Source of the DNA: an uncultured Bacteroidales bacterium
GTDB lineage: Bacteria > Bacteroidota > Bacteroidia > Bacteroidales > JALTDM01
NCBI GenBank assembly: GCA_964393715.1
Contig: CAYMVE010000004.1
Coordinates: 1-35,539 of the forward strand
Direction: 5' to 3'
Length of the DNA stretch: 35,539 nt
The number at the start of each line of letters is the position of its first letter. Within the stretch, counting starts at the first letter, position 1. Positions 2,532-34,125 of this stretch are shown one piece after another. Under the pieces are notes generated by a model, which was not told the origin of the DNA, searched no databases, and saw nothing but the letters and a program-made list of their open reading frames with translations. The translations under genes were made by a program, and so were the position numbers.

Positions 2532-3047
2532 ATGAAGAATAGTACATTTTCGTCGAAAGTGATGCACTTCTTCCTGAGTTGGGGGCTACTTTTCCTTGTT
2601 TGGTTGGCGTTTACCTCCACTACTCAGTCGCAAGAAGTGTTGGTTGGCGCAGGGGTGAGTATGCTTATTGCTTTGTTTACATTAAGGTTTTTTGATTGTT
2701 GTACTTTTTCGTTTTTATCTCCGGTAAGGCTGTTCAATGTGGTGTGGTACATTGTAGTGTTTATTATCGAGATGATAAAAGCGAACCTTGATGTAGCACG
2801 CAGAGTAATTGCTCCTTCGTTGCCCATTAATCCGGGAATTGTAAAAATTCAAACCCGGCTGAAATCCGATTATGCCAAAATGGTTTTGGCAAATAGTATT
2901 ACGCTTACACCCGGTACTTTGTCGGTGGATATAGTGGATGATTACATTTACATTCACTGGATAGATGTGAAAAGTACCGATCCGGAACAAGCATTTAAAG
3001 ACATTGCGGAAACATTTGAAAAAATCTTAATAAAAATCTTTGACTAA
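2532..3047 (+). CDS. mnhE: Mrp-type Na+/H+ antiporter subunit E (MbsA/MbxA of an MBS-like complex)
   Basis: PGIV and LANSITLTPGTLSVD motifs, YIHWID; first gene of the operon. Confidence 0.92.
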   Translation: MKNSTFSSKVMHFFLSWGLLFLVWLAFTSTTQSQEVLVGAGVSMLIALFTLRFFDCCTFSFLSPVRLFNVVWYIVVFIIEMIKANLDVARRVIAPSLPINPGIVKIQTRLKSDYAKMVLANSITLTPGTLSVDIVDDYIYIHWIDVKSTDPEQAFKDIAETFEKILIKIFD

Positions 3048-3316
3048 TGGAAGCATTTAAAGAATTAGCCATTTACATAGCATTTGGTTTTATCATCCTG
3101 GGGATGATATTTGCCTTTATCCGGTTTGTGAAGGGTTCTACGGCAGCAGACAGAACGGTTGCAGTTGATACTTTTACGACCATCGGTGTTGCGGGATTGG
3201 TTTTGTTGGGCTATCTGTTCCAACGCTTTATTTACATCGATGTGGCATTAGTGTATGGGGTACTTGGTTTTATAGGAGTATTGGTAATCGCAAGATATTT
3301 GGAGGACGCATTATGA
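3047..3316 (+). CDS. mnhF: Mrp subunit F (MbsB/MbxB)
   Basis: 89 aa, 3 TM; RFVKGSTAADRTVAVD, YIDVALVY and ARYL motifs; TAATG overlap with the upstream gene. Confidence 0.92.
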   Translation: MEAFKELAIYIAFGFIILGMIFAFIRFVKGSTAADRTVAVDTFTTIGVAGLVLLGYLFQRFIYIDVALVYGVLGFIGVLVIARYLEDAL

Positions 3317-3672
3317 TTCAGATATTGGAATTTATCGGTTTGGTGTTGATTATTATAGGTGCAGTTTTCCTGTTTTTGGGTGCACTTGGCATTTACAGAA
3401 TGCCCGATGTGTATAACAGGTTACAAGCCGGAACCAAGGCAACCACTTTGGGGGGGATGTCTCTAATTATAGGTGTAGGTCTTATCCAACCCGATTGGTT
3501 TTTTAAAACCCTGATTTTGGTTGTTTTTATAGCGCTTTCAAATCCTATTAGTTCACATGCTTTGGCAAGAAGTGCCTATAAGTCTAAAATCAAACCGTTT
3601 TTGAAAGGCGACGAAAACGAAATGGATGCTTATAAAGAAGTGGTTGAAAATAATAAAACTAAGGAGGCATAA
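3313..3672 (+). CDS. mnhG: Mrp subunit G (MbsC/MbxC)
   Basis: GIYRMPDVYNRLQAGTKATTLG and NPISSHALARSAY motifs; ATGA overlap. Confidence 0.93.
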   Translation: MIQILEFIGLVLIIIGAVFLFLGALGIYRMPDVYNRLQAGTKATTLGGMSLIIGVGLIQPDWFFKTLILVVFIALSNPISSHALARSAYKSKIKPFLKGDENEMDAYKEVVENNKTKEA

Positions 3673-3674
3673 AA

Positions 3675-3962
3675 ATGAGTATTCTACTGGTTAGTATCAT
3701 AATAATGGCCATTTTGCTTTTGGGGGCGGCTATTTATGCCGTTATCCAAAAGGATTTGCTTTATGCGGTGATTGCAACATCTATTATCAGTTTGATTTTA
3801 TCCATTATGTTCTATTTGTTGCAAGCTCCGGATGTGGCGCTTACCGAAGCGGCTATCGGTGTGGCTCTTACTACTATTATTTTTGTGATAACCATCCGGA
3901 ACACGGAAAGGTACGAAGATAAAAAGCATGTTAAGGTTGGAAATAAAATAATCAAAAAATGA
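3675..3962 (+). CDS. MbsD/MbhD-like subunit (DUF4040, MrpA C-terminal-like)
   Basis: 95 aa, 3 TM; LQAPDVALTEAAIG motif. Confidence 0.9.
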   Translation: MSILLVSIIIMAILLLGAAIYAVIQKDLLYAVIATSIISLILSIMFYLLQAPDVALTEAAIGVALTTIIFVITIRNTERYEDKKHVKVGNKIIKK

Positions 3963-4669
3963 AGAAGGTAATCGTTTTATTATTGCTTGCAGTTGTCGGG
4001 TATTATCTGGTAGATGTTTTTTCTCAAATATCATTTGGCGAAAACAGATATGAAGGTCAAAATGTAAGGGATTTCTACCTGGATAAATCTAAAAATGACT
4101 TGCAAGTTTCGAATAGTGTAACTGCCATTGTCGTAAACTTTAGAGGATTTGATACCTTGGGAGAAGTAACGGTTTTATTTTTGGCAGCTACGGCATTGGG
4201 AAGTATTTTGTACAGGCGTAGGGAGGATGCGCATGGTGGAGTGGTGCTTTTTAGTGCCAGTAGGATTGTAAGAGCCGGTTCGCATTTGTTGTTTGCTCCC
4301 ATATTGTTGCTGGGTGCTTATGTGTTTATACACGGCCATTTGTCACCTGGTGGAGGATTTCAAGGAGGTACCATTATAGCAACAGGATTTTTGCTGATGT
4401 TATTGGCTTATCATGATTACAAAGTTAGCCATGGTGTTTTGTCATGGGTAGAATCCTTGGCCGGTCTTACTTTTGTGTTTGCCGGTTTGGGCGGATTGAT
4501 TTTAGGCAAGACCTTTTTGGAAAATTTCCTGCCCGTTGGGACCATTAATTATTTGTTCAGCGGCGGTATTATTCCTATTATTTATATTGCTGTAGGGTTC
4601 AAAGTAGGGGCAGAATTGACGGGCGTACTTTATACTTTGTTGAATGAAAAAGAATATAAAAAACAATAA
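3959..4669 (+). CDS. mnhB: Mrp subunit B-like (MbsE; fused MbhE+MbhF equivalent)
   Basis: NSVTAIVVNFRGFDTLGEVTVLF and HGHLSPGGGFQGG motifs. Confidence 0.92.
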   Translation: MKKVIVLLLLAVVGYYLVDVFSQISFGENRYEGQNVRDFYLDKSKNDLQVSNSVTAIVVNFRGFDTLGEVTVLFLAATALGSILYRRREDAHGGVVLFSASRIVRAGSHLLFAPILLLGAYVFIHGHLSPGGGFQGGTIIATGFLLMLLAYHDYKVSHGVLSWVESLAGLTFVFAGLGGLILGKTFLENFLPVGTINYLFSGGIIPIIYIAVGFKVGAELTGVLYTLLNEKEYKKQ

Positions 4670-4672
4670 GTT

Positions 4673-5050
4673 ATGAATCTGGGAAATAATCTTGATATTT
4701 TGACCATTACCTTTTACGGGTCGGCAATACTGCTTATTCTTATAGGTTTGTATGCCGCACTGGTAAAAAGGTCTTTGATTAAAATCGTAATCGGATTGTC
4801 AATAATTGATTCCGGTGTGCATTTGTTGTTGGTATCCATAGGATATTTGCAAGGTGGTACGGCACCGATTTTTTCGCCGGCAGTTATTGACAAAAATCCG
4901 GTAATGGTTGACCCTGTACCGCAAGCACTTGTTCTTACGGCCATTGTTATTGGTTTTGCCGTAACAGCCGTTGCATTGGCATTGGTAATTAGACTTTACA
5001 GACATCATAAAACTGTTAATATTGACGAAATAAAGAATTTAAAATGGTAG
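4673..5050 (+). CDS. mnhC: Mrp subunit C / NuoK-like (MbsG)
   Basis: VDPVPQALVLTAIVIG motif; 3 TM. Confidence 0.93.
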   Translation: MNLGNNLDILTITFYGSAILLILIGLYAALVKRSLIKIVIGLSIIDSGVHLLLVSIGYLQGGTAPIFSPAVIDKNPVMVDPVPQALVLTAIVIGFAVTAVALALVIRLYRHHKTVNIDEIKNLKW

Positions 5051-6540
5051 GAACACCTGTACAACTGATAGCGATTCCGTTATTGGCAGCGTTTTTGATG
5101 CCGCTGCTCGGAAAAGCATGGAAAGAGTTAGTAAGAATAACTCCCGGTGTAGTATTAGTGTATTTGTTGTATTTATCGGTAAATTTGTTGAGCTACACCA
5201 TTGACAACGGAAGGATTGTGGAAATGATAGCCGGGTGGAGTCCACCTTGGGGAATCAATCTGGTATTTTCTCCTTTTAGCGGCTTTCTCGCCACACTGAT
5301 GCTTTTTATGGGGCTTATTGTGTGGATCTATTCTTACAGGTTCAAAAAAATTGAAGATTACGACGATTATGAACCGACTATCAAGTACTATTTGTTATTA
5401 ATGATGTTGATAACGGCATCCGTAGGAATAGTACTTACCGGTGATATCTTCAATTTGTTTGTATTCATAGAAATATTGGGTATTACCGCGTATGGCCTTA
5501 CAGCATTTTACCGAGGACGAGACGGTGCCGAAGCCGCTTTCAAGTATTTGTTTATCGGTTCGTTCTCTTCCGTATTGTTGTTGTTGGCCATTATGATTAT
5601 TTATTCCCAATTGGGCACCTTAAATATGGCTGATATTGCTCAGAAGGCCGGAGAATTGAAGCCGGTTTACAAAATATCGGCACTCGTATTATTTTTGGTT
5701 GCTTTGGGTATTGAGGCCGAAATGTTTCCCCTTAACGGATGGGCACCGGATGCTTATTCACAAGCTCCTGCACCGGTTGGTGCCGCTTTTGCCGGTGTTG
5801 TCGTAAAAGCCGGTCTTTACACAATTATCCGCCTGATATACACTTTGTTTGATGTGGGCGGTACTTACGAATACCTGATTGTCATGGGAATGGTGACAAT
5901 GGTCATTGCCGAATTTGCTGCTATCAGTCAAAACCGCCTGAAAAGAATGCTGGCTTATTCAAGTATCGGACAAATGGGACTGGTATTGGTAGCTTTCGGT
6001 ATTGGAAAAGAAGAAGGGGTATTTGCCGCTTTATTTCTGATGTTTAATCATGCTATCATAAAAGGGCTTTTGTTCCTCTCGGGAAGTTATTTGGTTTATC
6101 ATTCCAAAGATAAATATTTGTCGGAATTGAACGGTATCGGTAAGATTATGCCGCTTACCTCATTCTTGTTTGCGTTGGCCGCTTTTGCCATTGTAGGATT
6201 TCCGCCTTTTGCCGGATTTTGGAGTAAGTTGGCAGTATTAACTGCTGCGGCAGATTCGGGAATGCTGCTTATTGTTGGCTTAATTTTGTCGGTAAGTGTG
6301 ATTGAGGTGGTTTATTACCTGAGGGTAGTGAACCGAATTTATTTTGTAAAGAGGGAAACCGATGTGGAAATCCAAAAGCCGACACCTCAAGCAATGCTTT
6401 CTATGCTGGTACTTGGGGCAATTATTATTGCAGTAGGTTTTTATCCCGATGTTATTACGGGGATATTACACAAAGCCTCTGCTGCTTTATTGGATAAGAC
6501 AACTTATATAAATGAAGTATTAAGTCAAACCATAAATTAA
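5044..6540 (+). CDS. mnhD: Antiporter-like proton-translocating subunit, MrpD/NuoN-like (MbsH)
   Basis: GWSPPWGI, TGDIFNLFVFIE, WAPDAYSQAP, LKRMLAYSSIGQMG and GFPPFAGFWSK motifs. Confidence 0.9.
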   Translation: MVGTPVQLIAIPLLAAFLMPLLGKAWKELVRITPGVVLVYLLYLSVNLLSYTIDNGRIVEMIAGWSPPWGINLVFSPFSGFLATLMLFMGLIVWIYSYRFKKIEDYDDYEPTIKYYLLLMMLITASVGIVLTGDIFNLFVFIEILGITAYGLTAFYRGRDGAEAAFKYLFIGSFSSVLLLLAIMIIYSQLGTLNMADIAQKAGELKPVYKISALVLFLVALGIEAEMFPLNGWAPDAYSQAPAPVGAAFAGVVVKAGLYTIIRLIYTLFDVGGTYEYLIVMGMVTMVIAEFAAISQNRLKRMLAYSSIGQMGLVLVAFGIGKEEGVFAALFLMFNHAIIKGLLFLSGSYLVYHSKDKYLSELNGIGKIMPLTSFLFALAAFAIVGFPPFAGFWSKLAVLTAAADSGMLLIVGLILSVSVIEVVYYLRVVNRIYFVKRETDVEIQKPTPQAMLSMLVLGAIIIAVGFYPDVITGILHKASAALLDKTTYINEVLSQTIN

Positions 6541-6547
6541 AAAAGAT

Positions 6548-8398
6548 ATGAATATCATACACATAACCTTGGGAATATTGCTCGGCGGTGCGGTGCTTAC
6601 CTATTTTGCCCATAAGATTTCCGGTATTTTGAGAGATATTGTCTTTGCCGGTTCTCTTATTGTGGCAACTGTATTGTTTTTTATGCAAATAGCACCCGAT
6701 ACCGTAGCCAATTTTAGTTTGGGCGGTTGGCAACTCTTATTGAGTTTGTCCCATTTCGGATTGTTGTTTTCCTTTATCATATTGGGGCTGGGGGTGTTGG
6801 CAGGCATCTATGCCATTCCTTATATGAAAGATAAAGAAAATCTGGGGTTTTTTTACATGAATTTCTTACTCAGTATCTTCGGAATGCTGGGGATTGTGAT
6901 GGCACAAGATCTGGTTTCCTTTTTTATTTTTTGGGAAATAATGACTTGGTCATCTTACTTACTGGTAGTCTATAACGGTAATGATACCAACAAGATAGGT
7001 ATAAAATACATCGTGTTTAGTGCCATCGGGGCTTATTCGATGCTAACGGCTATCGTAATGATATATTCGCAACTACATAGCTTTAATTGGAGCATTTTGT
7101 TTACTCAATTTACAACTATGCCGGTTGCCTATCAAGTAACGGTAGCAGTACTTTTCACCATAGGATTTGGAGTAAAGGCGGCTATGATGCCTTTGCATGT
7201 ATGGGCACCGGATGCTTACAGTAATGCTCCCATGGCGTTTACTTCCGTGTTTTCCGGGGCACTCTCCAAAATGGGGGTGTACGGGTTGGTATTGGTTTTT
7301 GTAACCATGGTATCTTACTTGCCGGAAAATTTGCTGTTTAGAGAAATTATAGCATGGTTAGGAGCCATTACGGCTGTTATGGGTACCTTGTGGGCTATTT
7401 TCCAGGATGATGCGAAAAAGTTGTTGGCTTATTCTTCGGTGGCTCAGTTAGGGTATATCATTGCCGGTGTAGCTATTGGTACCGAATTGGCTATGATGGC
7501 GGCTTTGTTTTTAGCCGTAATGCACGGAATTTTCAAAGGTACTTTGTTTATGGCTATTGGTGCCGTAGAAAAGCAAGTAGGAACGACCGACCTGACTGTA
7601 CTAACCGGTCTTATCCGAAAAATGCCGCTTACTTTTATTGCTACATTATTGTCGATTATTGCATTAGCCGGCGTTCCGCCTCTTGCCGGTTTTGTTGGTA
7701 AGTGGATGTTGTACGAAGCCATGATTGCTAACGGAAATTATATTCTGGTTATTTTGATATTCTTTTCCAGTACGGCCGCATTTTTGTATTCTTACAAGAT
7801 TTTGTACGGTATCTTTTTAGGACAAGAAGAACCGGAATTTAAAGATGTGAAAGAAGCACCTGCCTTGATGGTAATTCCTATGTTGGTGTTGGCAGCTCTG
7901 CTTTTCTTCTTCGGTTCTTTCCCGGGATATCTTTTGAAATACATTGATAATGCTTTGGTTACCATGGGCTATCCGGTGAGTGAAGGCAAATGGTGGAAAA
8001 TGTCCACCTTGTTTAATGATTGGGGCAACAAAGTAAGCTTGGATTTGGTTTTATATGCTGTTATTACGGTTTTCATTACTCTGGTGGTAATATTGTTTTT
8101 CAGGTGGAAGAATACCCGTTATGTTTCTACAAAAGATATCAGTCTTTCCGGTGAAATGCCGAAAGAAGATGAGAATTACAGTTTCAAATTAGACTTTTTC
8201 AAGCCGTTTGAAAGAGCGGTTTCGCCCTTATTGAGATATAAAATTGAAACTTATTACAACGGATTGGCTTCGGGATTAGAAGCTTTCTTTGATTTTGTAA
8301 GAAGAATTTATAACGGGAATGCACAAATTTATGCCATTTATGTGATTACATTTTTGGTAATATTATTATTGGTTGCAAATCATATTTTTACTGTTTAA
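6548..8398 (+). CDS. Second antiporter-like subunit with C-terminal extension, NuoL/M/MrpA-like (MbsH')
   Basis: FFIFWE, KAAMMPLHVWAPDAY, KKLLAYSSVAQLGY and GVPPLAGFVGKW motifs. The long C-terminal amphipathic segment plus final TM resembles a lateral helix. Confidence 0.9.
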   Translation: MNIIHITLGILLGGAVLTYFAHKISGILRDIVFAGSLIVATVLFFMQIAPDTVANFSLGGWQLLLSLSHFGLLFSFIILGLGVLAGIYAIPYMKDKENLGFFYMNFLLSIFGMLGIVMAQDLVSFFIFWEIMTWSSYLLVVYNGNDTNKIGIKYIVFSAIGAYSMLTAIVMIYSQLHSFNWSILFTQFTTMPVAYQVTVAVLFTIGFGVKAAMMPLHVWAPDAYSNAPMAFTSVFSGALSKMGVYGLVLVFVTMVSYLPENLLFREIIAWLGAITAVMGTLWAIFQDDAKKLLAYSSVAQLGYIIAGVAIGTELAMMAALFLAVMHGIFKGTLFMAIGAVEKQVGTTDLTVLTGLIRKMPLTFIATLLSIIALAGVPPLAGFVGKWMLYEAMIANGNYILVILIFFSSTAAFLYSYKILYGIFLGQEEPEFKDVKEAPALMVIPMLVLAALLFFFGSFPGYLLKYIDNALVTMGYPVSEGKWWKMSTLFNDWGNKVSLDLVLYAVITVFITLVVILFFRWKNTRYVSTKDISLSGEMPKEDENYSFKLDFFKPFERAVSPLLRYKIETYYNGLASGLEAFFDFVRRIYNGNAQIYAIYVITFLVILLLVANHIFTV

Positions 8399-8414
8399 AT
8401 AATAAGTTGGAGTT

Positions 8415-9320
8415 ATGGACATACTAATAAAAATCTTAGGAGCGGTTGCCACAATATTTGTAGCATTTTTGGTTGGAATGCTGTATATGGGGCTTAGTAG
8501 GAAGATCACCGCAAGGGTACAAAATCGAATAGGTCCGCCTGTTTGGCAGAACTATATTGATGCCTTGAAACTCGTATCAAAAACCACTGCGGTACATCAT
8601 GGTATCATGCAACATTTGGCACCGGCCTTTTTGATGGTATCATCGATTGTTACTTTGATGTTCGTACCGGTTTTGAGGGATCACAACTGGTTTCCGAATT
8701 TGAGTTTTCACGGTGACCTGATATTTCTGCTTTATATTATGGTATTCGGTCCGTTGGGTATGGCTTTGGGAGCCGGACAAACCGGCAACCCAAATTCTGC
8801 TATCGGTATTACTCGTGGATTGAGTCAGCTTACCGGTTTTGAAATCCCCTGGGTAATGGCTTTGGTAGCTATTATGATTCAATATGATACTACTTCGGTA
8901 GCCGATGTAATGAAAGTACAGCAGGAACACGGTTGGTTGATGTTCCAAAATCCGTTTGCTTTCATTGCGGCCGTGTTGGCTATGTTAGGAATGTTTCGCT
9001 ATTCTCCGTTTGATATTGTCGGAGCACCTGCTGAATTGGCATCTGGTCCGGTATCCGAGTTTGGAGGTAAGTATTTGGGGCTTATGATGTCGTCCAAATC
9101 CATTTTTGCCTTTGCCAAATTGACTTTGTATGTTGATTTGTTTATGGGCGGTGCTTCCAATTTGATAGAACTGTTGGTAAAAACTTTTGCCTTATACCTT
9201 ATCCCCATGCTGTATGGCATGGTTAGTCCCAGATACAGAACGGAGCAAGCCATTCGTTATTTCTGGGGATGGCCTTTGTTTTTCGGGCTTTTGGCAATTT
9301 TGTATTCAGTAATTTTTTAA
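8415..9320 (+). CDS. nuoH: NuoH-like membrane anchor subunit (MbsM)
   Basis: RKITARVQNRIGPP, PFDIVGAPAELASGPVSEFGG and PRYRTEQ motifs. Confidence 0.92.
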   Translation: MDILIKILGAVATIFVAFLVGMLYMGLSRKITARVQNRIGPPVWQNYIDALKLVSKTTAVHHGIMQHLAPAFLMVSSIVTLMFVPVLRDHNWFPNLSFHGDLIFLLYIMVFGPLGMALGAGQTGNPNSAIGITRGLSQLTGFEIPWVMALVAIMIQYDTTSVADVMKVQQEHGWLMFQNPFAFIAAVLAMLGMFRYSPFDIVGAPAELASGPVSEFGGKYLGLMMSSKSIFAFAKLTLYVDLFMGGASNLIELLVKTFALYLIPMLYGMVSPRYRTEQAIRYFWGWPLFFGLLAILYSVIF

Positions 9321-9332
9321 ATATAGTTAGCA

Positions 9333-9884
9333 ATGATAAACGATAAAAATAGCCAAAAAATAGTTGATATAATCCAAAACTTTGCCCGTAAGCATTCTTT
9401 GTTTGTATTGGCTTACGGAACAGGTTGCGGGGCGATTGAAATACCTCCGACCATGACATCAAGGTACGATGCCGAGAGGTTTGGTATTAGAGGAGCCGCT
9501 ACACCTCGACAAGCCGATGTGCTGCTTATTACCGGATATTTGACCACCAAAACTCTGAAAAGAGTAATAAGAGTCTATGAACAAATGCAGGATCCCAAGT
9601 ATGTTATAGGGTTCGGTTCCTGTACCATAAACGGAGGAATGTATTGGGATTCTTATAACACCATAAAAGTGCTGGACAAATATTTGCCCGTTGATGTATA
9701 TATAAACGGCTGTATGCCACGACCTGAAGCCGTTATAGAAGGGTTTATCAAGTTACAAAAACTTATTGCGGAAGGAAAAGCCAACGGCGCAAAGAAATAT
9801 AAAGAAAATTTGGAATGGTATCGGGCTAATCAGAAAAAAGTATTAGGGCCTACTGTTCCGCACATTCAAGAATATAACTGGTAA
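9333..9884 (+). CDS. nuoB: NuoB-like Fe-S small subunit (MbsJ)
   Basis: TGCGAIE, RYDAERFG, PRQADVL, GSCTINGG and VDVYINGCMPRPE motifs; only three Cys (32, 97, 127). Confidence 0.92.
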   Translation: MINDKNSQKIVDIIQNFARKHSLFVLAYGTGCGAIEIPPTMTSRYDAERFGIRGAATPRQADVLLITGYLTTKTLKRVIRVYEQMQDPKYVIGFGSCTINGGMYWDSYNTIKVLDKYLPVDVYINGCMPRPEAVIEGFIKLQKLIAEGKANGAKKYKENLEWYRANQKKVLGPTVPHIQEYNW

Positions 9885-9896
9885 ACTTGCAAAGTC

Positions 9897-10472
9897 ATGA
9901 TGGAAGAAAAAAAACAATCAATCATAGAAAGATTGCAAAAAGCATTTCCCGAAATAGAGGAAACGAAGGTCGATTATCCTTATAATAGGGTGGACCTGCG
10001 AATTGCCAAAAATAAAATTCCGGCAATCTTGTTTTATCTAAAAGACGAAATGAGATTTATCCACCTTTCTCATATTACTTGTATAGACTGGATAGAAGAC
10101 GAAAAATTTGAATTGATTTTTATCGTTTGGTCGCCGGAGGAAAAAATAAAAGTTTTCGTAAGAACTTTCCTTGACAGGAATAATCCTGTTATGGAAAATA
10201 TTGACATGATATGGCGGCAAGCCAATACTTATGAAAGAGAGTTGAGGGAAATGTTCGGAATTCAATTTGAAGGATTGGTAGCCCCCAAAGAATTTATTTT
10301 GGAAGATTGGGACGATATACCACCTATGAGACGGGATTTTGATACAGAAGCTTATGCTAAAAAACGATTCTTTGAACGACCGGGCCGTGAAGATGCTCGT
10401 GATGTAAGGAAAACTATTGCAGAAAGAACCGGAGAAACCATACCTGAATTTGCAAAGAAATATTCAAGATAA
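9897..10472 (+). CDS. nuoC: NuoC-like subunit (MbsK)
   Basis: ANTYERELREMFGIQFEG and EDWDDIPPMRRDF motifs. Confidence 0.92.
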   Translation: MMEEKKQSIIERLQKAFPEIEETKVDYPYNRVDLRIAKNKIPAILFYLKDEMRFIHLSHITCIDWIEDEKFELIFIVWSPEEKIKVFVRTFLDRNNPVMENIDMIWRQANTYERELREMFGIQFEGLVAPKEFILEDWDDIPPMRRDFDTEAYAKKRFFERPGREDARDVRKTIAERTGETIPEFAKKYSR

Positions 10473-10483
10473 TTTTTGGAACA

Positions 10484-11602
10484 ATGGCAAGAGAAAAAGT
10501 AACAACATTATATTTAGGACCTCAGCACCCCGGTATTACGGGTAACATGATGGTCAGACTGAAGCTCAAAGGAGATACCATAGTCGGAGCAAGAACCGAA
10601 GTCGGTTATCTTCATAGAGGTTTTGAAAAATTACAGGAAAAAAGAAATTGGCTGCAATCTTTTACCATATTGTGCCGTTTCTGTGTTCCCGAACCCGATC
10701 CGGTAGAAGAAGCCTATGCTTTGGCCGTGGAAATGCTAGAAGGAAGAGAAGTGCCTGAAAGGGCAAAATATATCAGAGTGCTGGTGCTGGAAATGGCCCG
10801 TATAGCGTCTTATTTATTGTGGTACGGTGGACAATCGGGGTCTGCCGGACTTTACACAATCGGGCAATGGAGTGTAGGAGACCGGAACTATATACTCGAT
10901 TTGTTTGAAGATTTGACTGGTGGTCGTGTGTATCACATGTTTATCTGGCCGGGCGGCGTAAGACGAGATTTGCCCAGAGGTTTTAAAGATAAGGCCATGA
11001 AAGTAATGGATTATTTGGAAAAGCGTCTGGAAGATTACGATACCCTGCTTTTTGAAAATGCCATTTTCCAAAAAAGAGCACAAGGCGTGGGCGTGATTGA
11101 CAAAAACAAAGCCGTGGAATGGGGAGTAGTAGGGCCGCCGCTTAGAGGATGTGGCATCAAAAGCGATATCCGGATAGATGACCCGTACGAAGTGTATGAT
11201 GAGTTGTACGAAAAAGGTGTATTTGAAGTGCCTGCTTATGAAGGTGGTGATGTTTGGGCAAGGGCTTTGGTTAGAAGATTTGAAATAAGACAGTCCATAA
11301 ATATCATCAGGTATGTTTTGGATAATATGCCGGAAGGAGAATTTTATAACAAGATACCGAATCCACACAAATGGAAATTACCTAAAGGCGATGCTTACTC
11401 CAGAGTGGAAGCTACTCGTGGAGAAATCGGATTCTTTGTAGCAAGCGACGGAGGTATTTATCCGAGAAGGACACACATGAGAGGTGCTGCTTATGTACAC
11501 GGAGTAACACTGCTCGAAAATCTCCTTATAGGAGAAAATGTGGCAGATGTTTCTTTTATTATGAATAGTTTGGGAACTTGTCCACCTGAAATAGAAAGAT
11601 AA
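10484..11602 (+). CDS. nuoD: NuoD/hydrogenase-large-subunit homologue of the MbsL/MbxL type (no NiFe site)
   Basis: GPQHP and GYLHRGFEK motifs. The L1 position reads CRFCVPEPD and the C-terminus reads SLGTCPPEIER, leaving one Cys per hydrogenase CxxC motif. Confidence 0.9.
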   Translation: MAREKVTTLYLGPQHPGITGNMMVRLKLKGDTIVGARTEVGYLHRGFEKLQEKRNWLQSFTILCRFCVPEPDPVEEAYALAVEMLEGREVPERAKYIRVLVLEMARIASYLLWYGGQSGSAGLYTIGQWSVGDRNYILDLFEDLTGGRVYHMFIWPGGVRRDLPRGFKDKAMKVMDYLEKRLEDYDTLLFENAIFQKRAQGVGVIDKNKAVEWGVVGPPLRGCGIKSDIRIDDPYEVYDELYEKGVFEVPAYEGGDVWARALVRRFEIRQSINIIRYVLDNMPEGEFYNKIPNPHKWKLPKGDAYSRVEATRGEIGFFVASDGGIYPRRTHMRGAAYVHGVTLLENLLIGENVADVSFIMNSLGTCPPEIER

Positions 11603-11620
11603 ACATTAAAAATTAAGGTT

Positions 11621-13417
11621 ATGAGTTTTTTTAATTTGAAAGGCACATTAAAACCGCTAACTTCGTTAAAGCAATTTGCCAAGAAACCACATACCATAGA
11701 GTTTCCATTGGAAGCTCCGGAAACAAGCGAAAGATATAGAGGGTTACACTTTAATAATCTGGAATACTGTATTGGGTGCGGCAACTGTTCTACTATCTGT
11801 CAAAATGCGGCAATAGACATGATTCCCGTAGAAGGAATCGAACCTAAAAAAGGAGATTCCGGACTTAGGCCGCGAGTGGACAACGGAAGATGTTGTTGGT
11901 GTGCTTTGTGCGTGGAAGTGTGTCCGACCGGAAGTCTTTCTTTGACAAAGGATTATATATTTGTTTCGGATAATCCGGATGACTTTTTGTGGACGCCTGG
12001 TGTGGACAATCCTGACGGAATCAATTTGATTTCGTTTACTTCTTCGCCGGATACTTCGCTCAATGAATATGAAAGAGTTCCCATGCCGGAACTGGACGGG
12101 AAAGAAAGAGTCAAGTCGTTTGCCGAAGTGGTATTGGGATATCAGGAAGAAGAAGCCCGCAAAGAAGCACAAAGATGTATCAGCTGCGGATTGTGTACCG
12201 AAGCATGTCCCGACCACATGCATATTCCAGAGTATATCAATGCCATAGCAAGTGGTAACGACGAAGATGCCATCCGTATTATTTACGATAACAACCCGTT
12301 GCCGGAAATGTGCGGTAAGGTATGTACCCGCAGATGTGAAGAAGTGTGTGCTATTGCCAAACGAGGCGAACCGCTTGCTATTAGATGGCTCAAAAGATAT
12401 GCTACGGAAAGAGCGGAAAATGCCGATTTGATCAAAGAAATTGTGAATCCTGAAATATTGCCGCCCAATGGCTACAAAGTAGGTATTATCGGAGCCGGTC
12501 CGTCAGGTCTTACGGCTGGTTATTATCTGGCACTCAGAGGCTTTGATGTGACTATTTACGAAGCCCATGATAAGCCGGGCGGTATGACCATGTATGGGAT
12601 ACCTAAATACAGGTTGCCTCTGGAAAGCTTGATGAAGCAAGTGGAATACATGGAAAAAATCGGTGTTAAGATTCATTACAACACCAAAGTAGGTAAGGAT
12701 ATTAGTTTTGAAGAAATTTATGAAAAGTTTGATGCCGTATTTGTGGGAGTAGGTTTTGCCAAGCCATGGACCCTGGGTATAGAAGGAGAAGATTTGGAAG
12801 GCTCTTCGCAAGCGGTATATTTCCTCGAAAGAATCAATAGCGGAGAGAGAATAGATGTTGGTTACAGAGTAGTGGTAATAGGAGGAGGAAATGTGGCAAT
12901 AGACGCTGCCAGAGTATCGAGAAGGTTAGGGGCTGAAGTAGTAATGCTATACAGAAGAAGAATTGAAGACATGCCGGCCGACTGGGAAGAAATAGAAGGA
13001 GCGGAAGCCGAAGGTGTTCAAATTATCCCCCAAACCATACCGATTAAGATTCACGGAGAAAACGGTAAGGTAAAAGCCGTAGAATATTTGAAAGCCGAAA
13101 TGGTGCCAGATCCGAAAGGAGGAAGACCCAGACCTCAGCCGATAGAAGGTAGTAACACCATAATAGAATGTAGCTCGGTATTTGCGGCTATCGGTCAGCA
13201 AGGTGATTACTCTTTCATAGAAGAAAGCAAGTTCAAAGATGCCATTAAGATAGAAAGAGGCAGATTTGTTGTGAATGAAATGCAACAAACAACCCTTGAC
13301 AAAGTGTTTGCCGGTGGTGATGCTGTAAACAGAACGGCTGATGCTATCAGTGCTATTGCCGATGGTTATCGTGCCGTAAAAGGTATCGAAAAATTCTTGC
13401 TGGGAAAGAATAAATAA
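11621..13417 (+). CDS. NuoI-like 2x[4Fe-4S] subunit (MbsN) fused to a GltD/SudA/NfnB-type FAD- and NAD(P)H-binding oxidoreductase
   Basis: N-terminal SERYRGLH, CIGCGNCSTIC and CCWCALCVEVCP; then EAQRCISCGLCTEACP, CGKVCTRRCEEVC, GAGPSG (FAD), GGGNVAID...YRRR (NADPH-type) and VFAGGD. Confidence 0.9.
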   Translation: MSFFNLKGTLKPLTSLKQFAKKPHTIEFPLEAPETSERYRGLHFNNLEYCIGCGNCSTICQNAAIDMIPVEGIEPKKGDSGLRPRVDNGRCCWCALCVEVCPTGSLSLTKDYIFVSDNPDDFLWTPGVDNPDGINLISFTSSPDTSLNEYERVPMPELDGKERVKSFAEVVLGYQEEEARKEAQRCISCGLCTEACPDHMHIPEYINAIASGNDEDAIRIIYDNNPLPEMCGKVCTRRCEEVCAIAKRGEPLAIRWLKRYATERAENADLIKEIVNPEILPPNGYKVGIIGAGPSGLTAGYYLALRGFDVTIYEAHDKPGGMTMYGIPKYRLPLESLMKQVEYMEKIGVKIHYNTKVGKDISFEEIYEKFDAVFVGVGFAKPWTLGIEGEDLEGSSQAVYFLERINSGERIDVGYRVVVIGGGNVAIDAARVSRRLGAEVVMLYRRRIEDMPADWEEIEGAEAEGVQIIPQTIPIKIHGENGKVKAVEYLKAEMVPDPKGGRPRPQPIEGSNTIIECSSVFAAIGQQGDYSFIEESKFKDAIKIERGRFVVNEMQQTTLDKVFAGGDAVNRTADAISAIADGYRAVKGIEKFLLGKNK

Positions 13418-13600: not shown

Positions 13601-14668
13601 ATGAAACATAATTTTTATGCCGGTCCGGCTATATTGCCGAAAGAAGCCATAGAGAACAGTATAGAAGCTTTGAAAGACTTTGCGGGAATGGGACTTTCGC
13701 TCATTGAGATTTCGCACAGAAGCAAAGAATTCGAGGCTGTAATGAAAGAAGCTCAACAAACGGTAAAAGAGCTTTTGAATATTAGTGACGATTACGAAGT
13801 TTTGTTTTTGCAAGGAGGTGCCAGCACCCAATTTTTAATGGTGCCTTATAACTTTTTAGAAAAGAAAGCGGCTTATCTAGATACCGGTGCTTGGGCCAGC
13901 AAAGCGATAAAGGAAGCAAAACTTTTCGGAGAAGTGGAAGTGGTGGCTTCATCCAAAGATAAGAATTACAGTTATTTGCCTAAAAATTATCATGTGCCGG
14001 AAGATGCAGATTATTTTCATATTACTACCAACAATACCATTTACGGAACGGAAATCAAACACGATCCGGATGTGAAAGTTCCTCTTGTTGCCGATATGTC
14101 TTCAGATTTTATGAGTCGTCCCGTGGATGTTTCCAAATATACTTTAATATATGCAGGAGCTCAAAAGAATGTAGGTCCGGCAGGTGTAACCGTTGTTATT
14201 GTAAAGAAAAATGCTTTGGGTAAAGTATCGCGGCCTTTGCCTACCATGATGAATTATCAAACGCATGTGGACAAAGGGTCTATGTTTAATACGCCGCCTG
14301 TATTTGCCGTTTATGCAACTTTGCAAACCTTGAAATGGTTGAAAAATTTGGGTGGTGTGGAAGCCATAGAAAAAATAAACATCGAAAAAGCCAATATGCT
14401 TTATGATGAAATAGACAGGAACAAATTGTTCAAACCTACTGTTGAAGATGCCGAAGACCGTTCCAGAATGAATGTTTGTTTTGTGATGAACGAAGCCTAT
14501 AAAGATTTGGATAAGGAATTTTTGGATTTTGCAGCTAAGCAGGATATCGTTGGCATTAAAGGACACCGTTCCGTAGGAGGATTTAGAGCTTCCATATACA
14601 ATGCTTTACCTCTTGACAGTGTGAAACATCTGGTTAATGTTATGAAAGAATTTGAAAAACTTCACTAA
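13601..14668 (+). CDS. serC: 3-phosphoserine/phosphohydroxythreonine aminotransferase
   Basis: [35 protein letters not shown] (PLP Lys), SMFNTPP and [15 protein letters not shown] motifs. Confidence 0.97.
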
Positions 14669-14682
14669 AAACTTATTGTCTT

Positions 14683-15606
14683 ATGAAAACCATATTAGTA
14701 GCGACACAAAAACCGTTTGCTCCGGTAGCAGTTGAAGGAATTAAAAAAATTGCCGAAGAAGCCGGATATAATTTTAAATTGTTGGAAAAATACGAAAATG
14801 AAGACCAGCTGAAAGAGGCGGTAAAAGAAGCGAATGCACTTATCGTAAGGAGCGATAAAATACATGCGGGCATTATGGATGCTGCTCCCAAGTTGGAAGT
14901 AATAGTACGGGCGGGAGCCGGTTTTGATAATATCGATTTGGAAGCCGCTACGCAACGAAATATCGTAGTGATGAATACGCCCGGACAAAATGCCAATGCC
15001 GTAGCCGAATTGGTAATCGGGATGATGATTTATTATGTCAGAAACTTTTTTAACGGAAAACCCGGTACCGAACTGATGGGGAAAACCTTAGGGTTGCACG
15101 CTTTTGGTAATGTAGCCAGAAATGTGGCAAGAATTGCCAAAGGTATCGGTATGAAAATGTATGCTTACGACCCGTTCCTTACCGACGAGCAAATCAGGGA
15201 AGGAGGTGCGGAACCTGTTCATTCCGTAGAAGAATTGTATAGCAAATCTCAATATGTGTCGTTGCATATTCCTGCTATCAAAGAAACGATAAAAAGCATC
15301 AATTACGACTTGTTGAAGCGGATGCCGGAAGGGGCAACCCTTGTTAATGCCGCCAGAAAAGAAGTGATTGATGAAGACGACTTACTTAAAATTTTTGAAG
15401 AAAGGGAAGATTTCGGTTATATCAGCGACATTGCTCCCGACAATAAAGATATTATTGCCGAAAAATATCCCGGGAGATATTATTTTACGCCGAAAAAAAT
15501 GGGAGCACAAACGGCAGAAGCTAACATTAATGCCGGATTGGCGGCAGCAAGACAAATAGTGACATTTTTTAAAACCGGGGAAGCCAAATTTCAAGTTAAC
15601 AAATAA
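14683..15606 (+). CDS. serA: D-3-phosphoglycerate dehydrogenase, short type without ACT domain (Lys-type active site)
   Basis: RAGAGFDNID, VMNTPGQNANAVAE, SLHIP and VNAAR motifs; TPKKMGAQTAEA in place of TPHLGAST; adjacent to serC. Confidence 0.88.
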   Translation: MKTILVATQKPFAPVAVEGIKKIAEEAGYNFKLLEKYENEDQLKEAVKEANALIVRSDKIHAGIMDAAPKLEVIVRAGAGFDNIDLEAATQRNIVVMNTPGQNANAVAELVIGMMIYYVRNFFNGKPGTELMGKTLGLHAFGNVARNVARIAKGIGMKMYAYDPFLTDEQIREGGAEPVHSVEELYSKSQYVSLHIPAIKETIKSINYDLLKRMPEGATLVNAARKEVIDEDDLLKIFEEREDFGYISDIAPDNKDIIAEKYPGRYYFTPKKMGAQTAEANINAGLAAARQIVTFFKTGEAKFQVNK

Positions 15607-15620
15607 AAAAGTGTGAGCAT

Positions 15621-16874
15621 ATGGTAAAGATTAAAGCATTTAAAGCGTTGAGGCCGCCTAAAAATTTGGCGGATAAAGTTGCGGCAAGGCCTTACGATGT
15701 GTTGAACAGCAAAGAAGCCAGAAAAGAAGCGGAAGGAAATCCTTATTCGCTTTTGCACATAACAAAACCCGAAATAGACTTACCCGAAGGAACGGATGAA
15801 CACGATCCGAAGGTGTATGAAAAAGCCAAAGAAAACTTTGAAAAATTCAGAAAAGAAGGCTATCTGGTACCCGATGACGATGAATATCTGTATGTGTATG
15901 CACAAACTATGAATGGTAAGACGCAATACGGTTTGGTGGCTTGTGCTGCGGTGGATGATTATTTGAACGGTGTAATCAAAAAACACGAACTGACTCGAAA
16001 GGATAAGGAAGAAGACAGAATGAAGCATGTGCGAGTAACCAATGCCAATATGGAACCTGTGTTTTTTACATACAGGAAAGTAAATGAGATAGATGAAATA
16101 ATAAATGACACCGTTAGGAATAATGAGCCCGAATATGATTTTGTGGCGGAAGATGGTGTAGGACACCATTTTTGGGTGATAAAAGATAAAGAGAAAATAA
16201 ACAGGCTGGTTGAACTGTTTGAACAAATACCTAACACTTATGTAGCAGACGGACATCATAGAACGGCTGCAGCGGCATTGGTAGGTGCCGAAAAGCGAAG
16301 AAATAATCCGAATCACCGGGGAGATGAAGAATACAACTTTTTTATGGCGGTACATTTTCCGGATGATCAACTTACCATTATTGATTACAATAGGGTGGTA
16401 AAGGATTTGAACGGATTGACAAAAGAGGCGTTTTTGGAAAAAGTGGCTACACATTTTGAGGTGGAAGAGGTAGGCGAAAATGAATATAAGCCTTCCCGGT
16501 TGCACGAATTTTCCATGTATTTGGACGGTAAGTGGTATAAGATGACCGCCAAAGAACACACTTACGACGATAATCATCCGATTGATGGACTGGATGTTAC
16601 GGTACTTTCAAAATATGTGCTGGACGAAATATTGGGCATCAAGGATTTGAGAACCGACAAACGAATAGATTTTGTTGGCGGCATAAGAGGTTTGGGCGAA
16701 TTGAAAAGGAGAGTGGATAGCGGAGAAATGAAAGTGGCTTTTGCATTGTATCCCGTTACGATGAAGCAATTGATGGATATTGCGGATGCCGATATGATTA
16801 TGCCTCCGAAAACCACTTGGTTTGAGCCTAAGCTGCGTAGTGGTTTGGCCGTACATTTGTTGGACAAAATTTAA
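15621..16874 (+). CDS. DUF1015 family protein
   Basis: PYDV, IKKHELTR, YVADGHHR and MPPKTTWFEPKLRSGL motifs; usual third gene of serC-serA clusters. Confidence 0.92.
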   Translation: MVKIKAFKALRPPKNLADKVAARPYDVLNSKEARKEAEGNPYSLLHITKPEIDLPEGTDEHDPKVYEKAKENFEKFRKEGYLVPDDDEYLYVYAQTMNGKTQYGLVACAAVDDYLNGVIKKHELTRKDKEEDRMKHVRVTNANMEPVFFTYRKVNEIDEIINDTVRNNEPEYDFVAEDGVGHHFWVIKDKEKINRLVELFEQIPNTYVADGHHRTAAAALVGAEKRRNNPNHRGDEEYNFFMAVHFPDDQLTIIDYNRVVKDLNGLTKEAFLEKVATHFEVEEVGENEYKPSRLHEFSMYLDGKWYKMTAKEHTYDDNHPIDGLDVTVLSKYVLDEILGIKDLRTDKRIDFVGGIRGLGELKRRVDSGEMKVAFALYPVTMKQLMDIADADMIMPPKTTWFEPKLRSGLAVHLLDKI

Positions 16875-16902
16875 TTTGTTCATTGCTGATAATTAGTGGT
16901 AT

Positions 16903-16927
16903 AAGCACCCTTCGGGGTGCTTTTTTT
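16903..16927 (+). terminator. Rho-independent terminator
   Basis: AAGCACCC-TTCG-GGGTGCTT followed by a T run; UUCG tetraloop. Confidence 0.9.
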
Positions 16928-16978
16928 GTTGGTGCTGGTCTTTTGTTTTCAATGATAAGCGGGTACTTACTTTTTTAT

Positions 16979-16986
16979 TACCTTTG
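16979..16986 (+). promoter_or_regulatory. Bacteroidota -7 promoter element for pdxA
   Basis: TACCTTTG 21 nt upstream of the ATG. Confidence 0.65.
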
Positions 16987-17007
16987 TACAATTAAAATCT
17001 AACCATA

Positions 17008-18141
17008 ATGAATATTGCAATGAACGAAAAAATAAAGGTAGCTATTTCCCACGGAGATATCAACGGAATTAGTTATGAGGTGATGATCAAAACTTTTGCC
17101 AACAATGCCATAACGGAATTATGTACGCCGGTAGTTTACGGATCGGCAAAGGTGGCGGCTTATCACCGGAAAAACATAGGCTTGCAAAATTTTAGCTTCA
17201 ATCAAATATTATCTATCGACAAAGCGAATCCCAAGCGTCCCAATTTGGTAAATTGTGTGGATGGAAATATTAAAGTGGAATTGGGACAAACAACGGAAAT
17301 AGCAGGAGCAGCAGCCATTCGTTCGTTGGAGTGTGCATTGACGGATATTATGGAGAAAAAAGCCGATGTACTGGTTACGGCACCTATCAATAAGCATAGC
17401 CTGTATTCGGACAAATTTCCTTTTAAAGGTCATACGGATTTTCTTCGCAGTTATTTTAATGTAAAGAATGTGTTGATGTTTATGATAAGCGAAGAGGTGA
17501 AAATCGGGGTTGTCACGGCGCACATTCCTTTGTCGAGCGTGACCGAAAAAATAGATACGCAACTGGTGTATGACAAAATCAAATTGATGAACGAGAGTTT
17601 GAAGATAGATTTTAATATCCGGAAACCGAGAATTGCCGTATTAGGATTGAATCCGCATGCCGGCGATAACGGAATTTTGGGCGAAGAAGAAAAATATATT
17701 ATAGCACCGGCCATAAAGCAAGCCTTTGAGGAAGGTATAAAGGTGTTCGGCCCTTATCCTGCCGATAGTTTCTTTGGAGCCGGACATTATAAGAAATTTG
17801 ATGCTACCTTGGCTATGTATCATGATCAGGGGCTTATTCCTTTTAAGACATTAAGTTTTGGAAAAGGAGTGAATTTTACAGCGGGATTGCCTATTGTAAG
17901 GACTTCTCCCGATCACGGAGTGGGTTACGATATTGTAGGGGATAATAAGTCGGATCCCACTTCGTTTAGGAATGCTATTTATTATGCCATAGATATTTTC
18001 CGCAACCGGCAAATGAATAAAGAACTGGCTGCTGCATCGCTCAAAAAGAATTTGGATGCGGTTAATAAAGCATCGGAAGACGAAAACATCGACTTGACTC
18101 GTATAGACGATACCGACTCCGGTGAAACACTGATTTTGTAG
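17008..18141 (+). CDS. pdxA: 4-hydroxythreonine-4-phosphate dehydrogenase
   Basis: GDINGI, LVTAPINK, GHT, GLNPHAGD, GPYPAD, AMYHDQGL and RTSPDHG motifs; alternative start ATG 17020. Confidence 0.95.
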   Translation: MNIAMNEKIKVAISHGDINGISYEVMIKTFANNAITELCTPVVYGSAKVAAYHRKNIGLQNFSFNQILSIDKANPKRPNLVNCVDGNIKVELGQTTEIAGAAAIRSLECALTDIMEKKADVLVTAPINKHSLYSDKFPFKGHTDFLRSYFNVKNVLMFMISEEVKIGVVTAHIPLSSVTEKIDTQLVYDKIKLMNESLKIDFNIRKPRIAVLGLNPHAGDNGILGEEEKYIIAPAIKQAFEEGIKVFGPYPADSFFGAGHYKKFDATLAMYHDQGLIPFKTLSFGKGVNFTAGLPIVRTSPDHGVGYDIVGDNKSDPTSFRNAIYYAIDIFRNRQMNKELAAASLKKNLDAVNKASEDENIDLTRIDDTDSGETLIL

Positions 18142-34119: not shown

Positions 34120-34125
34120 TGCATC

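Follow-up and report, generated by a model that had tools for sequence, protein, structure and literature searches.

An MbsN/NuoI-type subunit fused to an NfnB-like flavoprotein as a probable NADPH input module of a bacterial MBS/Mbx-type complex

The stretch of DNA considered here, called the window below, is a piece of 35,539 nucleotides (contig CAYMVE010000004.1, assembly GCA_964393715.1) from an uncultured Bacteroidales bacterium. It carries a series of 13 consecutive genes on the + strand (2532-13417; Pfam), arranged in the same order as those of MBS, the membrane-bound reductase for sulfane sulfur in Pyrococcus furiosus, the subunits of which are listed in PMC7684303. The last gene of the series, at 11621-13417, encodes a protein of 598 amino acids in which an iron-sulfur domain of the MbsN/NuoI type is joined to an NfnB-like flavoprotein. 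Judged from its sequence, this fused open reading frame (ORF) appears to be the N subunit of a bacterial complex of the MBS/Mbx type, composed of an Mrp antiporter-like arm and a NuoB/C/D/H/I-like arm. Here, we describe the fused ORF and its surroundings and consider its possible role: on balance, it is probably a built-in, non-bifurcating NADPH input module of an ion-pumping sulfane-sulfur reductase.

The fused ORF, which is supported by Pfam, PDB matches and a structural model, starts with ATG, is uninterrupted and follows the preceding gene after a gap of 18 nt; its extent agrees exactly with that in an initial annotation of this DNA made from the sequence alone. Residues 1-125 (11621-11995) constitute the MbsN/NuoI-type domain with two [4Fe-4S] clusters. 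Pfam recognizes a NuoI-type dicluster domain at residues 46-104 (Fer4_9, 1.4e-9; Fer4_7, 2.7e-9), and in PDB the domain matches MbsN over residues 9-116 (6u8y_N, E 1.4e-21). C50, C53, C56 and C60 align with C61, C64, C67 and C71 of MbsN, and C91, C94, C97 and C101 with its C96, C99, C102 and C106, these eight cysteines being the cluster ligands of MbsN as given in a section of PMC8165549. A connector (residues 126-162; 11996-12106) follows, which includes an NfnB-like N-terminal stretch and can be aligned with 5jca_L from its residue 7 onward and with 4ylf_B from its residue 5. It leads to a Fer4_20 domain with two further [4Fe-4S] clusters (residues 163-267; 12107-12421; PF14691, 2.6e-29), in which C186, C189, C192 and C196 together with C235, C239 and C243 align with C39, C42, C47, C51, C90, C96 and C100 of Thermotoga maritima NfnB, listed as cluster ligands in a section of PMC7596348. 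The FAD and NADPH Rossmann domains occupy residues 285-582 (12473-13366; Pyr_redox_2, PF07992, 7.8e-28), with GAGPSG for FAD at residues 291-296, GGGNVA at 421-426 and LYRRR at 443-447. The four sets of iron-sulfur motifs and the GGGNVA and YRRR motifs that the initial annotation had read are thus all in place, and both nucleotide-binding folds are intact.

The flavoprotein half matches the large subunit of P. furiosus NfnI (5jca_L, 5.9e-97), T. maritima NfnB (4ylf_B, 2.5e-92) and the StnC-type protein 8oh5_C (8.6e-90) in PDB; the match to GltD is weaker (6s6s_G, 4.7e-59). An AlphaFold2 model of the whole protein, built from an alignment of 32 rows, has a mean pLDDT of 88.1 and a pTM of 0.83, low confidence being confined to residues 1-36; its superposition on 5jca_L gives 1.9 A and a TM-score of 0.90 (normalized to the target). 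The connector is modeled as ordered, since the pLDDT block means over residues 121-160 are 90, 88, 84 and 88. A joint fold of residues 1-150 against residues 151-598 with four [4Fe-4S] clusters gave a score of 0.00 (mark 0.32) and weighs neither way.

The fusion recurs in other genomes. All of the best 120 protein clusters contain it at a length of 595-605 residues, with identities of 73-95% and coverages of 99-100%. The best 80 of 187 confirmed relatives, obtained by a scan of species-representative genomes, were used as related loci, and residues were counted over the 77 near-full-length N homologues, 73 L subunits and 67 J subunits that they contain. An MbsL-like gene is found directly upstream on the same strand in 76 of the 80 loci, the remaining four having less than 600 nt of upstream sequence, and all 13 genes stand in the order of the window in 46, the others being truncated where the locus ends. 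This recurrence in sequence and gene context rules out an assembly artefact, so that the fusion proposed in the initial annotation is real. The eight ligand cysteines of the N-terminal domain are retained in 77/77 loci, except C50 (76/77), and the seven NfnB-type ligand cysteines, the glycine motifs for FAD and NADPH, YRR and D454 are invariant in all 77.

By their record titles, the 80 loci belong to Bacteroidales, Lentimicrobiaceae, Marinilabiliaceae, Rikenellaceae, Lutibacter, Melioribacteraceae, metagenome-assembled genomes (MAGs) labeled 'Chlorobiota' and Calditrichaceae, and many of the isolate names indicate samples from hydrothermal sites or sulfidic caves. The records under the names C. 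abyssi and M. roseus are MAGs. The complex is patchy within its own phylum, since a full-length match to NF010590, the NCBIfam model that covers the whole protein, was obtained in 3 of 301 evenly sampled genomes (own genome counted). For the flavoprotein half, the best 150 representatives (50% clustering) include 12 that carry the N-terminal NuoI-type domain; named members of these clusters come from Thermosipho melanesiensis, candidate division WOR-3/Hydrothermae and a Spirochaetaceae MAG. Metagenome contigs add eight further fused operons, complete or partial.

The other 12 genes of the operon, all on the + strand, are assigned to MBS positions by gene order. They encode MnhE-type (2532-3047, MbsA position; PF01899, 1.8e-43), MrpF-type (3047-3316, MbsB; PF04066, 5.8e-18), MnhG-type (3313-3672, MbsC; PF03334, 1e-25), MbhD-type (3675-3962, MbsD; PF13244, 2.6e-21) and MbhE/MnhB-type (3959-4669, MbsE; PF04039, 1.3e-22, and PF20501, 2.7e-10) proteins, a NuoK-like protein (4673-5050, MbsG; PF00420, 4.1e-28), two antiporter-like proteins of 498 residues (5044-6540, MbsH; PF00361, 8.8e-64) and 616 residues (6548-8398, MbsH'; PF00361, 4.5e-60) and a NuoH-like membrane anchor (8415-9320, MbsM; PF00146, 9.8e-54). 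Then come the MbsJ/NuoB-like subunit (J; 9333-9884), predicted to hold the proximal [4Fe-4S] cluster, a NuoC-like protein (9897-10472, MbsK; PF00329, 5.5e-26) and the MbsL/NuoD-like subunit (L; 10484-11602), which is the sole NuoD-type gene product of the genome. A promoter scan gave 33 promoter-like sites against 32.2 expected.

The J and L subunits place the core of the complex closest to P. furiosus MBS. J has MbsJ (6u8y_J) as its best PDB match, with an E-value of 3.1e-69 and a gapless alignment over residues 12-173. Its cysteines for the proximal cluster are only C32, C97 and C127, and G29 stands at the position of MbsJ C25, which is a dispensable non-ligand; all four residues are invariant in 67/67 loci. 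With glycine at the C25 position, three cysteines are therefore left, and the proximal [4Fe-4S] cluster is predicted to be held by three cysteines, the criterion for the MBS type; a cluster of this kind has been proposed by the authors of MBS as a catalytic feature, as stated in part of PMC7684303. L likewise has MbsL as its best PDB match (6u8y_L, 8e-107, vs. 6e-68 for Nqo4 and 1e-43 for MbhL). In MbsL, the [NiFe] site is gone and two of its four cysteines, C85 and C385, are left (PMC7684303, in part); C67 and C366 of L align with these two vestigial cysteines and are retained in 73/73 loci.

To which family does the flavoprotein half belong? Among NCBIfam models, the NfnB/SudA-type model TIGR01316 scores 361 bits vs. 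214 bits for the GltD model TIGR01317, the cut-off of which is 447.7. NF010590 (PRK13984) is the sole model that covers the whole protein: its alignment takes in positions 9-609 of 611 and scores 644 bits, below the equivalog cut-off of 946. Among 14 control genomes this cut-off is exceeded in T. maritima, a member known here by its model score. The window protein shares the architecture of NF010590 but represents a diverged lineage. The precedent in Thermotogota that the initial annotation had named is therefore correct, both for T. maritima and for a member in Thermosipho melanesiensis.

The phylogeny that the initial annotation had proposed as a check was inferred by FastTree from 159 domain sequences, comprising 147 representatives, the window, eight named loci, the NfnB of the same genome and two GltD outgroups; L085 was left out beforehand, as were P0134, P0137 and P0157, with matches of fewer than 330 query residues. 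A quick IQ-TREE analysis (LG+C20) covered 79 of the 159 rows, chosen by hand as all fused sequences, the neighboring clades and a sample of the long-fusion clade. FastTree united all 21 fused sequences with five stand-alone ones in one clade with a local support of 99, and IQ-TREE recovered the same clade, now of 27 rows with a sixth stand-alone sequence (SH-aLRT 98). In both trees this clade is separate from that of NfnB, with GltD as the outgroup. The genome's own NfnB belongs to that other clade; it shows 41% identity and is encoded on another contig directly behind a PyrK/NfnA-like gene.

Three other assignments were considered. The flavoprotein is not GltD, the small subunit of glutamate synthase: its TIGR01317 score falls far below the cut-off and it has no GltB partner, as the initial annotation had stated for the window; in the whole genome only a single partial match to PF01645 of 28.8 bits was found. 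Nor is it a canonical NfnB, as the upstream gene is MbsL-like rather than nfnA (a Pfam search of the operon revealed no nfnA-like gene adjoining the fused ORF), two residues near the flavin are replaced, as described below, and a separate nfnAB exists elsewhere. A third candidate was a split archaeal MBS subunit, suggested by the stand-alone relatives P0140 and P0136 in the fused clade (labeled Aciduliprofundum and Thermoplasmatota). It is unsupported at L086, the sole locus examined (its protein is 99% identical to P0140), where no MBS-like gene is present within 6.5 kb upstream and 2.3 kb downstream. L086, which is labeled Aciduliprofundum/Thermoplasmata, encodes at 6531-7913 a stand-alone member of the fused-clade flavoproteins of 460 residues, with gyrase among the neighbors and genes for DUF488 and for the gamma and alpha subunits of a 2-oxoacid:ferredoxin oxidoreductase downstream; this protein may be a soluble ferredoxin:NADP+ oxidoreductase.

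The residues around the flavin bear on whether the module bifurcates electrons. In T. maritima NfnB, the cluster next to FAD is bound by C51, C90, C96 and Glu117 (PMC7596348, in the passages on cluster ligands). The Glu117 position is Lys258 in the fused ORF (12392-12394, in the Fer4_20 domain), and lysine is found in 21/21 fused sequences and 77/77 loci as well as in 112 of 123 other NfnB-like representatives; glutamate is found in 8/8 sequences of the genome's own NfnB clade and in both GltD sequences. In the non-bifurcating StnC, a lysine at this position, K170, coordinates the cluster, and StnC has been described as a protein that 'shuttles electrons from NADPH' and has 'lost the ability to bifurcate' (PMC10482914). 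By analogy with StnC, the cluster next to FAD probably has a lysine ligand in the fused ORF as well. Three further marks have been used to tell true NfnB from relatives with a single function: nfnA lying upstream, a conserved Arg333 (in PfNfnI-B numbering) and an N-terminus that is long (PMC12221290). The NfnB-like N-terminal stretch is retained within the connector. The Arg333 position is Asp454 (12980-12982), with aspartate in 77/77 loci; in the fused sequences of the tree it is arginine in 0/21 and aspartate in 16/21, and in the genome's own NfnB clade arginine in 7/8. Serine occupies it in two metagenome loci, L087 and L090. R331, corresponding to NfnB R201 near flavin N5, is retained in 77/77 loci; it does not discriminate, because R201 is retained in StnC too.

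As for the nucleotide, the YRR motif at residues 444-446 (12950-12958) of the NADPH site is that by which T. maritima NfnB binds the 2'-phosphate and that which is characteristic of the strictly NADP(H)-dependent DsrL-2, as described in PMC7596348; this fits the NADPH preference proposed in the initial annotation. It is present in 77/77 loci and in 14/21 fused sequences. Lys258, Asp454, the absence of nfnA from the operon and YRR together argue for an NADPH-specific, non-bifurcating module, and bifurcation in the fused complex is unlikely on this signature; the bifurcating flavin that the initial annotation had considered possible thus found no support in the inspection of flavin residues that it had itself suggested. 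The remaining 7 of the 21 fused sequences have x-L-E in place of YRR and form one clade (support 99 in FastTree and 100 in IQ-TREE), which includes Thermosipho melanesiensis and WOR-3 representatives. As a general rule for Rossmann folds, a motif of the x-L-E type predicts NADH, and these fused forms are accordingly predicted to use NADH. In four of four metagenome operons of the x-L-E form (L110, L116, L128 and L133), the L subunit has neither vestigial cysteine, and in five of five YRR operons (L087, L088, L090, L092 and the window, 10484-13417) both are retained. As the counts are small and the sequences related, this co-variation is a lead rather than a result.

In the reading that we consider probable, a hydride would pass from NADPH to FAD, and single electrons would leave FAD, unbifurcated, through the two Fer4_20 [4Fe-4S] clusters and then the two that belong to the MbsN-like domain to the three-cysteine proximal cluster of the MbsJ-like subunit. 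There, sulfane sulfur (polysulfide) would be reduced in a pocket to which the L and M subunits contribute, and the reaction would be coupled to translocation of H+ or Na+ by the Mrp-like membrane arm. The sequences establish the architecture, the cofactor motifs, the conservation and the family placement; which way the electrons run, what accepts them and how energy is coupled we infer from related complexes. The far end of the chain is taken to be in use because all 13 genes are strictly conserved as a unit, down to the residues of the pocket, and a ferredoxin:NADP+ shunt would not need the pocket; the acceptor is taken to be sulfane sulfur because the features of J and L are of the MBS type. 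In T. maritima, mbxA is up 4.36-fold on S0 according to data in part of PMC9431562. The genome also encodes pyruvate:ferredoxin oxidoreductase, RnfC, an [FeFe] hydrogenase and the separate NfnAB; NADPH could therefore come from ferredoxin and NADH and then be respired.

Several points weigh against this reading, the main weakness being its small driving force. The potentials are about -320 to -380 mV for NADPH and about -260 mV for polysulfide. Electron flow between them would provide approximately 12-23 kJ per two electrons by our own calculation from these potentials. Values of 42 kJ for MBS with ferredoxin and 12 kJ for the membrane-bound hydrogenase MBH are given in a section of PMC8165549. 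The yield is thus comparable to that of MBH and well below that of MBS, and therefore the reaction is feasible but tight. Only homology points to the acceptor and to the way the electrons run, literature searches yielded no assay of any fused complex, and Degli Esposti (2015; PMC4758237) takes the fusion as an NAD(P)+-reducing site. Ferredoxin may also dock on the complex. The lysine ligand is deduced from one solved relative, and a distant fused locus from a metagenome, L088, has arginine at the Arg333 position; with serine in L087 and L090, aspartate is therefore typical of the lineage of the window rather than of the whole family.

The same chain of clusters could be run the other way. The flavoprotein would then be an output module, ferredoxin being oxidized and NADP+ reduced at FAD by an ion-translocating or simple ferredoxin:NADP+ oxidoreductase, as in the older view of 'Mbx'. 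This is unlikely in our judgement, but has points in its favor: NfnB-like proteins without NfnA catalyze NADPH-linked ferredoxin:NADP+ oxidoreductase reactions (PMC12221290), DsrL relatives work in both directions (PMC7596348, in the part on DsrL), and the nearest stand-alone archaeal relative, at L086, adjoins 2-oxoacid:ferredoxin oxidoreductase genes. However, flow from ferredoxin to FAD would skip the strictly conserved J/L/M pocket, which is the site that couples redox chemistry to pumping in machines of the complex I type (PMC7684303, in part), the Mbx of P. furiosus itself has been re-assigned to sulfane reduction (relevant parts of PMC9431562 and PMC7684303), and Rnf and NfnAB are already present in the genome for such balancing.

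Two further readings can be considered. In the first, the complex would be a form of complex I with its N-module exchanged for another, working as an NADPH:menaquinone oxidoreductase and not as a sulfur reductase. In its favor, NCBIfam assigns L to NuoD (NF004739, 403.7 bits, above cut-off) and J to NuoB, genes for cytochrome bd imply a quinol pool, and menaquinone as the acceptor would leave plenty of driving force. This is very improbable, since J has a single cysteine where complex I has a tandem CC motif, L is far nearer to MbsL than to Nqo4 and a search of the genome, which is 99.5% complete, for MenA (TIGR00751) was negative. The alignment of L with Nqo4, moreover, puts Thr19 where Nqo4 has His38, which we take to have a role in the quinone site, and Val68 where it has Tyr87. 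For the role of Tyr87 we follow PMC4758237. The least probable reading, in our view, is an FAD that bifurcates or confurcates as in NfnB, NADPH electrons being split between sulfane sulfur (via the complex) and ferredoxin. In its favor, the flavoprotein half shares 42% identity with P. furiosus NfnI-L, on which it superposes closely, and the conserved R331 and the NfnB-like N-terminal stretch are kept. Nevertheless, only one iron-sulfur path leaves FAD because the operon has no NfnA-like [2Fe-2S] partner, the low-potential glutamate ligand is replaced by lysine as in the non-bifurcating StnC and Arg333 by aspartate, the arginine is shared with StnC, and the fused clade stands outside the NfnB clade.

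Some other features of the genome and the window can be mentioned here. The gene for cytochrome bd subunit I in the same genome (C2:47673-49167) gives two overlapping matches with a TAG inside the first, which means that the gene is frameshifted, a pseudogene or misassembled. Within the window, a two-gene 2-oxoacid:ferredoxin oxidoreductase (fused gamma/alpha, then the thiamine pyrophosphate-binding beta) lies at 32278-35157, so that a source of ferredoxin is encoded approximately 19 kb from the complex. A gene for NAD kinase, which makes NADP+, lies at 30210-31097, probably by coincidence, and 22627-25683 encodes a protein of 1018 residues made of several PAS domains with no recognizable Pfam output domain. 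Just upstream of the operon, at 234-2253 on the + strand, are three ORFs of 149, 207 and 164 residues, for which no Pfam or NCBIfam family and no counterpart in the 80 related loci were found; a terminator-like hairpin (2223-2242) stands between them and the operon. Downstream, at 13601-18141, are genes for a class-V aminotransferase, a 2-hydroxyacid dehydrogenase, DUF1015 and PdxA, which look like a serine/pyridoxal-phosphate biosynthesis cluster unrelated to the complex; they are not conserved beside the operon in the 80 loci.

How much of this is new? The fusion in Thermotoga is said to have been discussed by Schut and co-workers in FEMS Microbiol Rev in 2013. The layout was described in print by Degli Esposti (2015; PMC4758237), and therefore the novelty that the initial annotation had implied does not stand. 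Literature searches with MbxN and TM1217 gave nothing relevant, a search for Mbx in Bacteroidetes gave only a review with one passing mention, and the C. abyssi genome paper contains no mention of Mrp, antiporter or glutamate synthase. The gene in the window is thus a new Bacteroidota member of an architecture already in print and in an NCBIfam model. Two aspects may be new: the Lys/Asp signature tying the module to non-bifurcating StnC-like relatives, and the split of the fused family into YRR and x-L-E forms.

If the NADPH input reading is extended to the whole family, the complex might be a complex I-like NAD(P)H:sulfane-sulfur pump with an acquired, non-homologous and non-bifurcating dehydrogenase module, existing in two designs. 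An NADPH design, with YRR and a two-cysteine L, would be that of the window and of Bacteroidota, Ignavibacteriota and Calditrichota, and a predicted NADH design, with x-L-E and a cysteine-free L, that of the relatives from Thermosipho and WOR-3. This joint picture is tentative, possible rather than probable. Were it true, the electron donor would have changed in evolution together with the catalytic pocket. Bacterial Mbx/MBS complexes are common in anaerobes of sulfidic and hydrothermal habitats, and annotation pipelines generally record them as complex I together with a 'glutamate synthase small subunit' or an 'FAD-dependent oxidoreductase'. If NADPH does enter through the flavoprotein, such organisms could respire it directly with sulfur and conserve the energy, and the metabolic models drawn up for sulfur reducers that ferment would have to be altered; the family would then also provide a second, independent case of a nucleotide dehydrogenase grafted onto a NuoI subunit. 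The signature of Lys258, Asp454 and YRR vs. x-L-E constitutes a set of predictions open to mutation tests.

Among known systems, the N subunit of the Thermotogota 'Mbx' (NF010590/PRK13984; T. maritima, Thermosipho melanesiensis) is the most similar in layout. It has the same domain order, as the end-to-end alignment with the model indicates, and the same position in a 13-gene operon, and the Thermosipho member falls in the same clade. It differs in that the window protein stays below the model cut-off (644 vs. 946 bits) and that the Thermosipho clade has x-L-E, not YRR, related x-L-E loci lacking the two cysteines of L. P. furiosus MBS (6U8Y) shares the order of the thirteen genes, the three-cysteine proximal cluster and the two vestigial cysteines, and its chains are the best PDB matches of L, J and the N domain. 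In contrast, MbsN is a free subunit of 208 residues that accepts electrons from ferredoxin, the C-terminal part of which is replaced here by an NADPH flavoprotein of 450 residues, and MbsJ C25 is glycine here.

The flavoprotein itself can be compared with several other enzymes. StnC of the Sporomusa ovata StnABC transhydrogenase (8OH5) and NfnABC (9N5U, 9BOV) also contain an NfnB-like NADPH/FAD module that is fused to an iron-sulfur chain, serves as a non-bifurcating entry of NADPH and has lysine at the ligand position of the proximal cluster. StnC, however, is in a separate clade and is fused to a NuoG/formate dehydrogenase-like domain and feeds a bifurcating module of the HydBC type; Pfam found no NuoG/FdhF-like domain in the fused ORF, whose partner is the N-terminal NuoI-type domain on a membrane complex. 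With NfnB and SudA (4YLF, 5JCA) it shares the fold (TM-score 0.89-0.90, target-normalized), the seven cysteines, the FAD site and the YRR site, unlike them having no NfnA partner and carrying lysine and aspartate for Glu117 and Arg333. GltD has the same overall fold and set of cofactors (31% identity; TM-score 0.85, target-normalized), but its model TIGR01317 remains below cut-off, GltB is missing and it is the outgroup in both trees. Finally, in the NuoEFG module of complex I, a nicotinamide-nucleotide dehydrogenase likewise sits on a NuoI-type subunit and feeds an iron-sulfur chain, so that the 'independent N-module' of the initial annotation may fairly be kept as a functional analogy. The two are non-homologous: NuoEFG is NADH-specific, has FMN in NuoF and consists of three subunits, whereas the module described here is a single FAD flavoprotein fused to NuoI.

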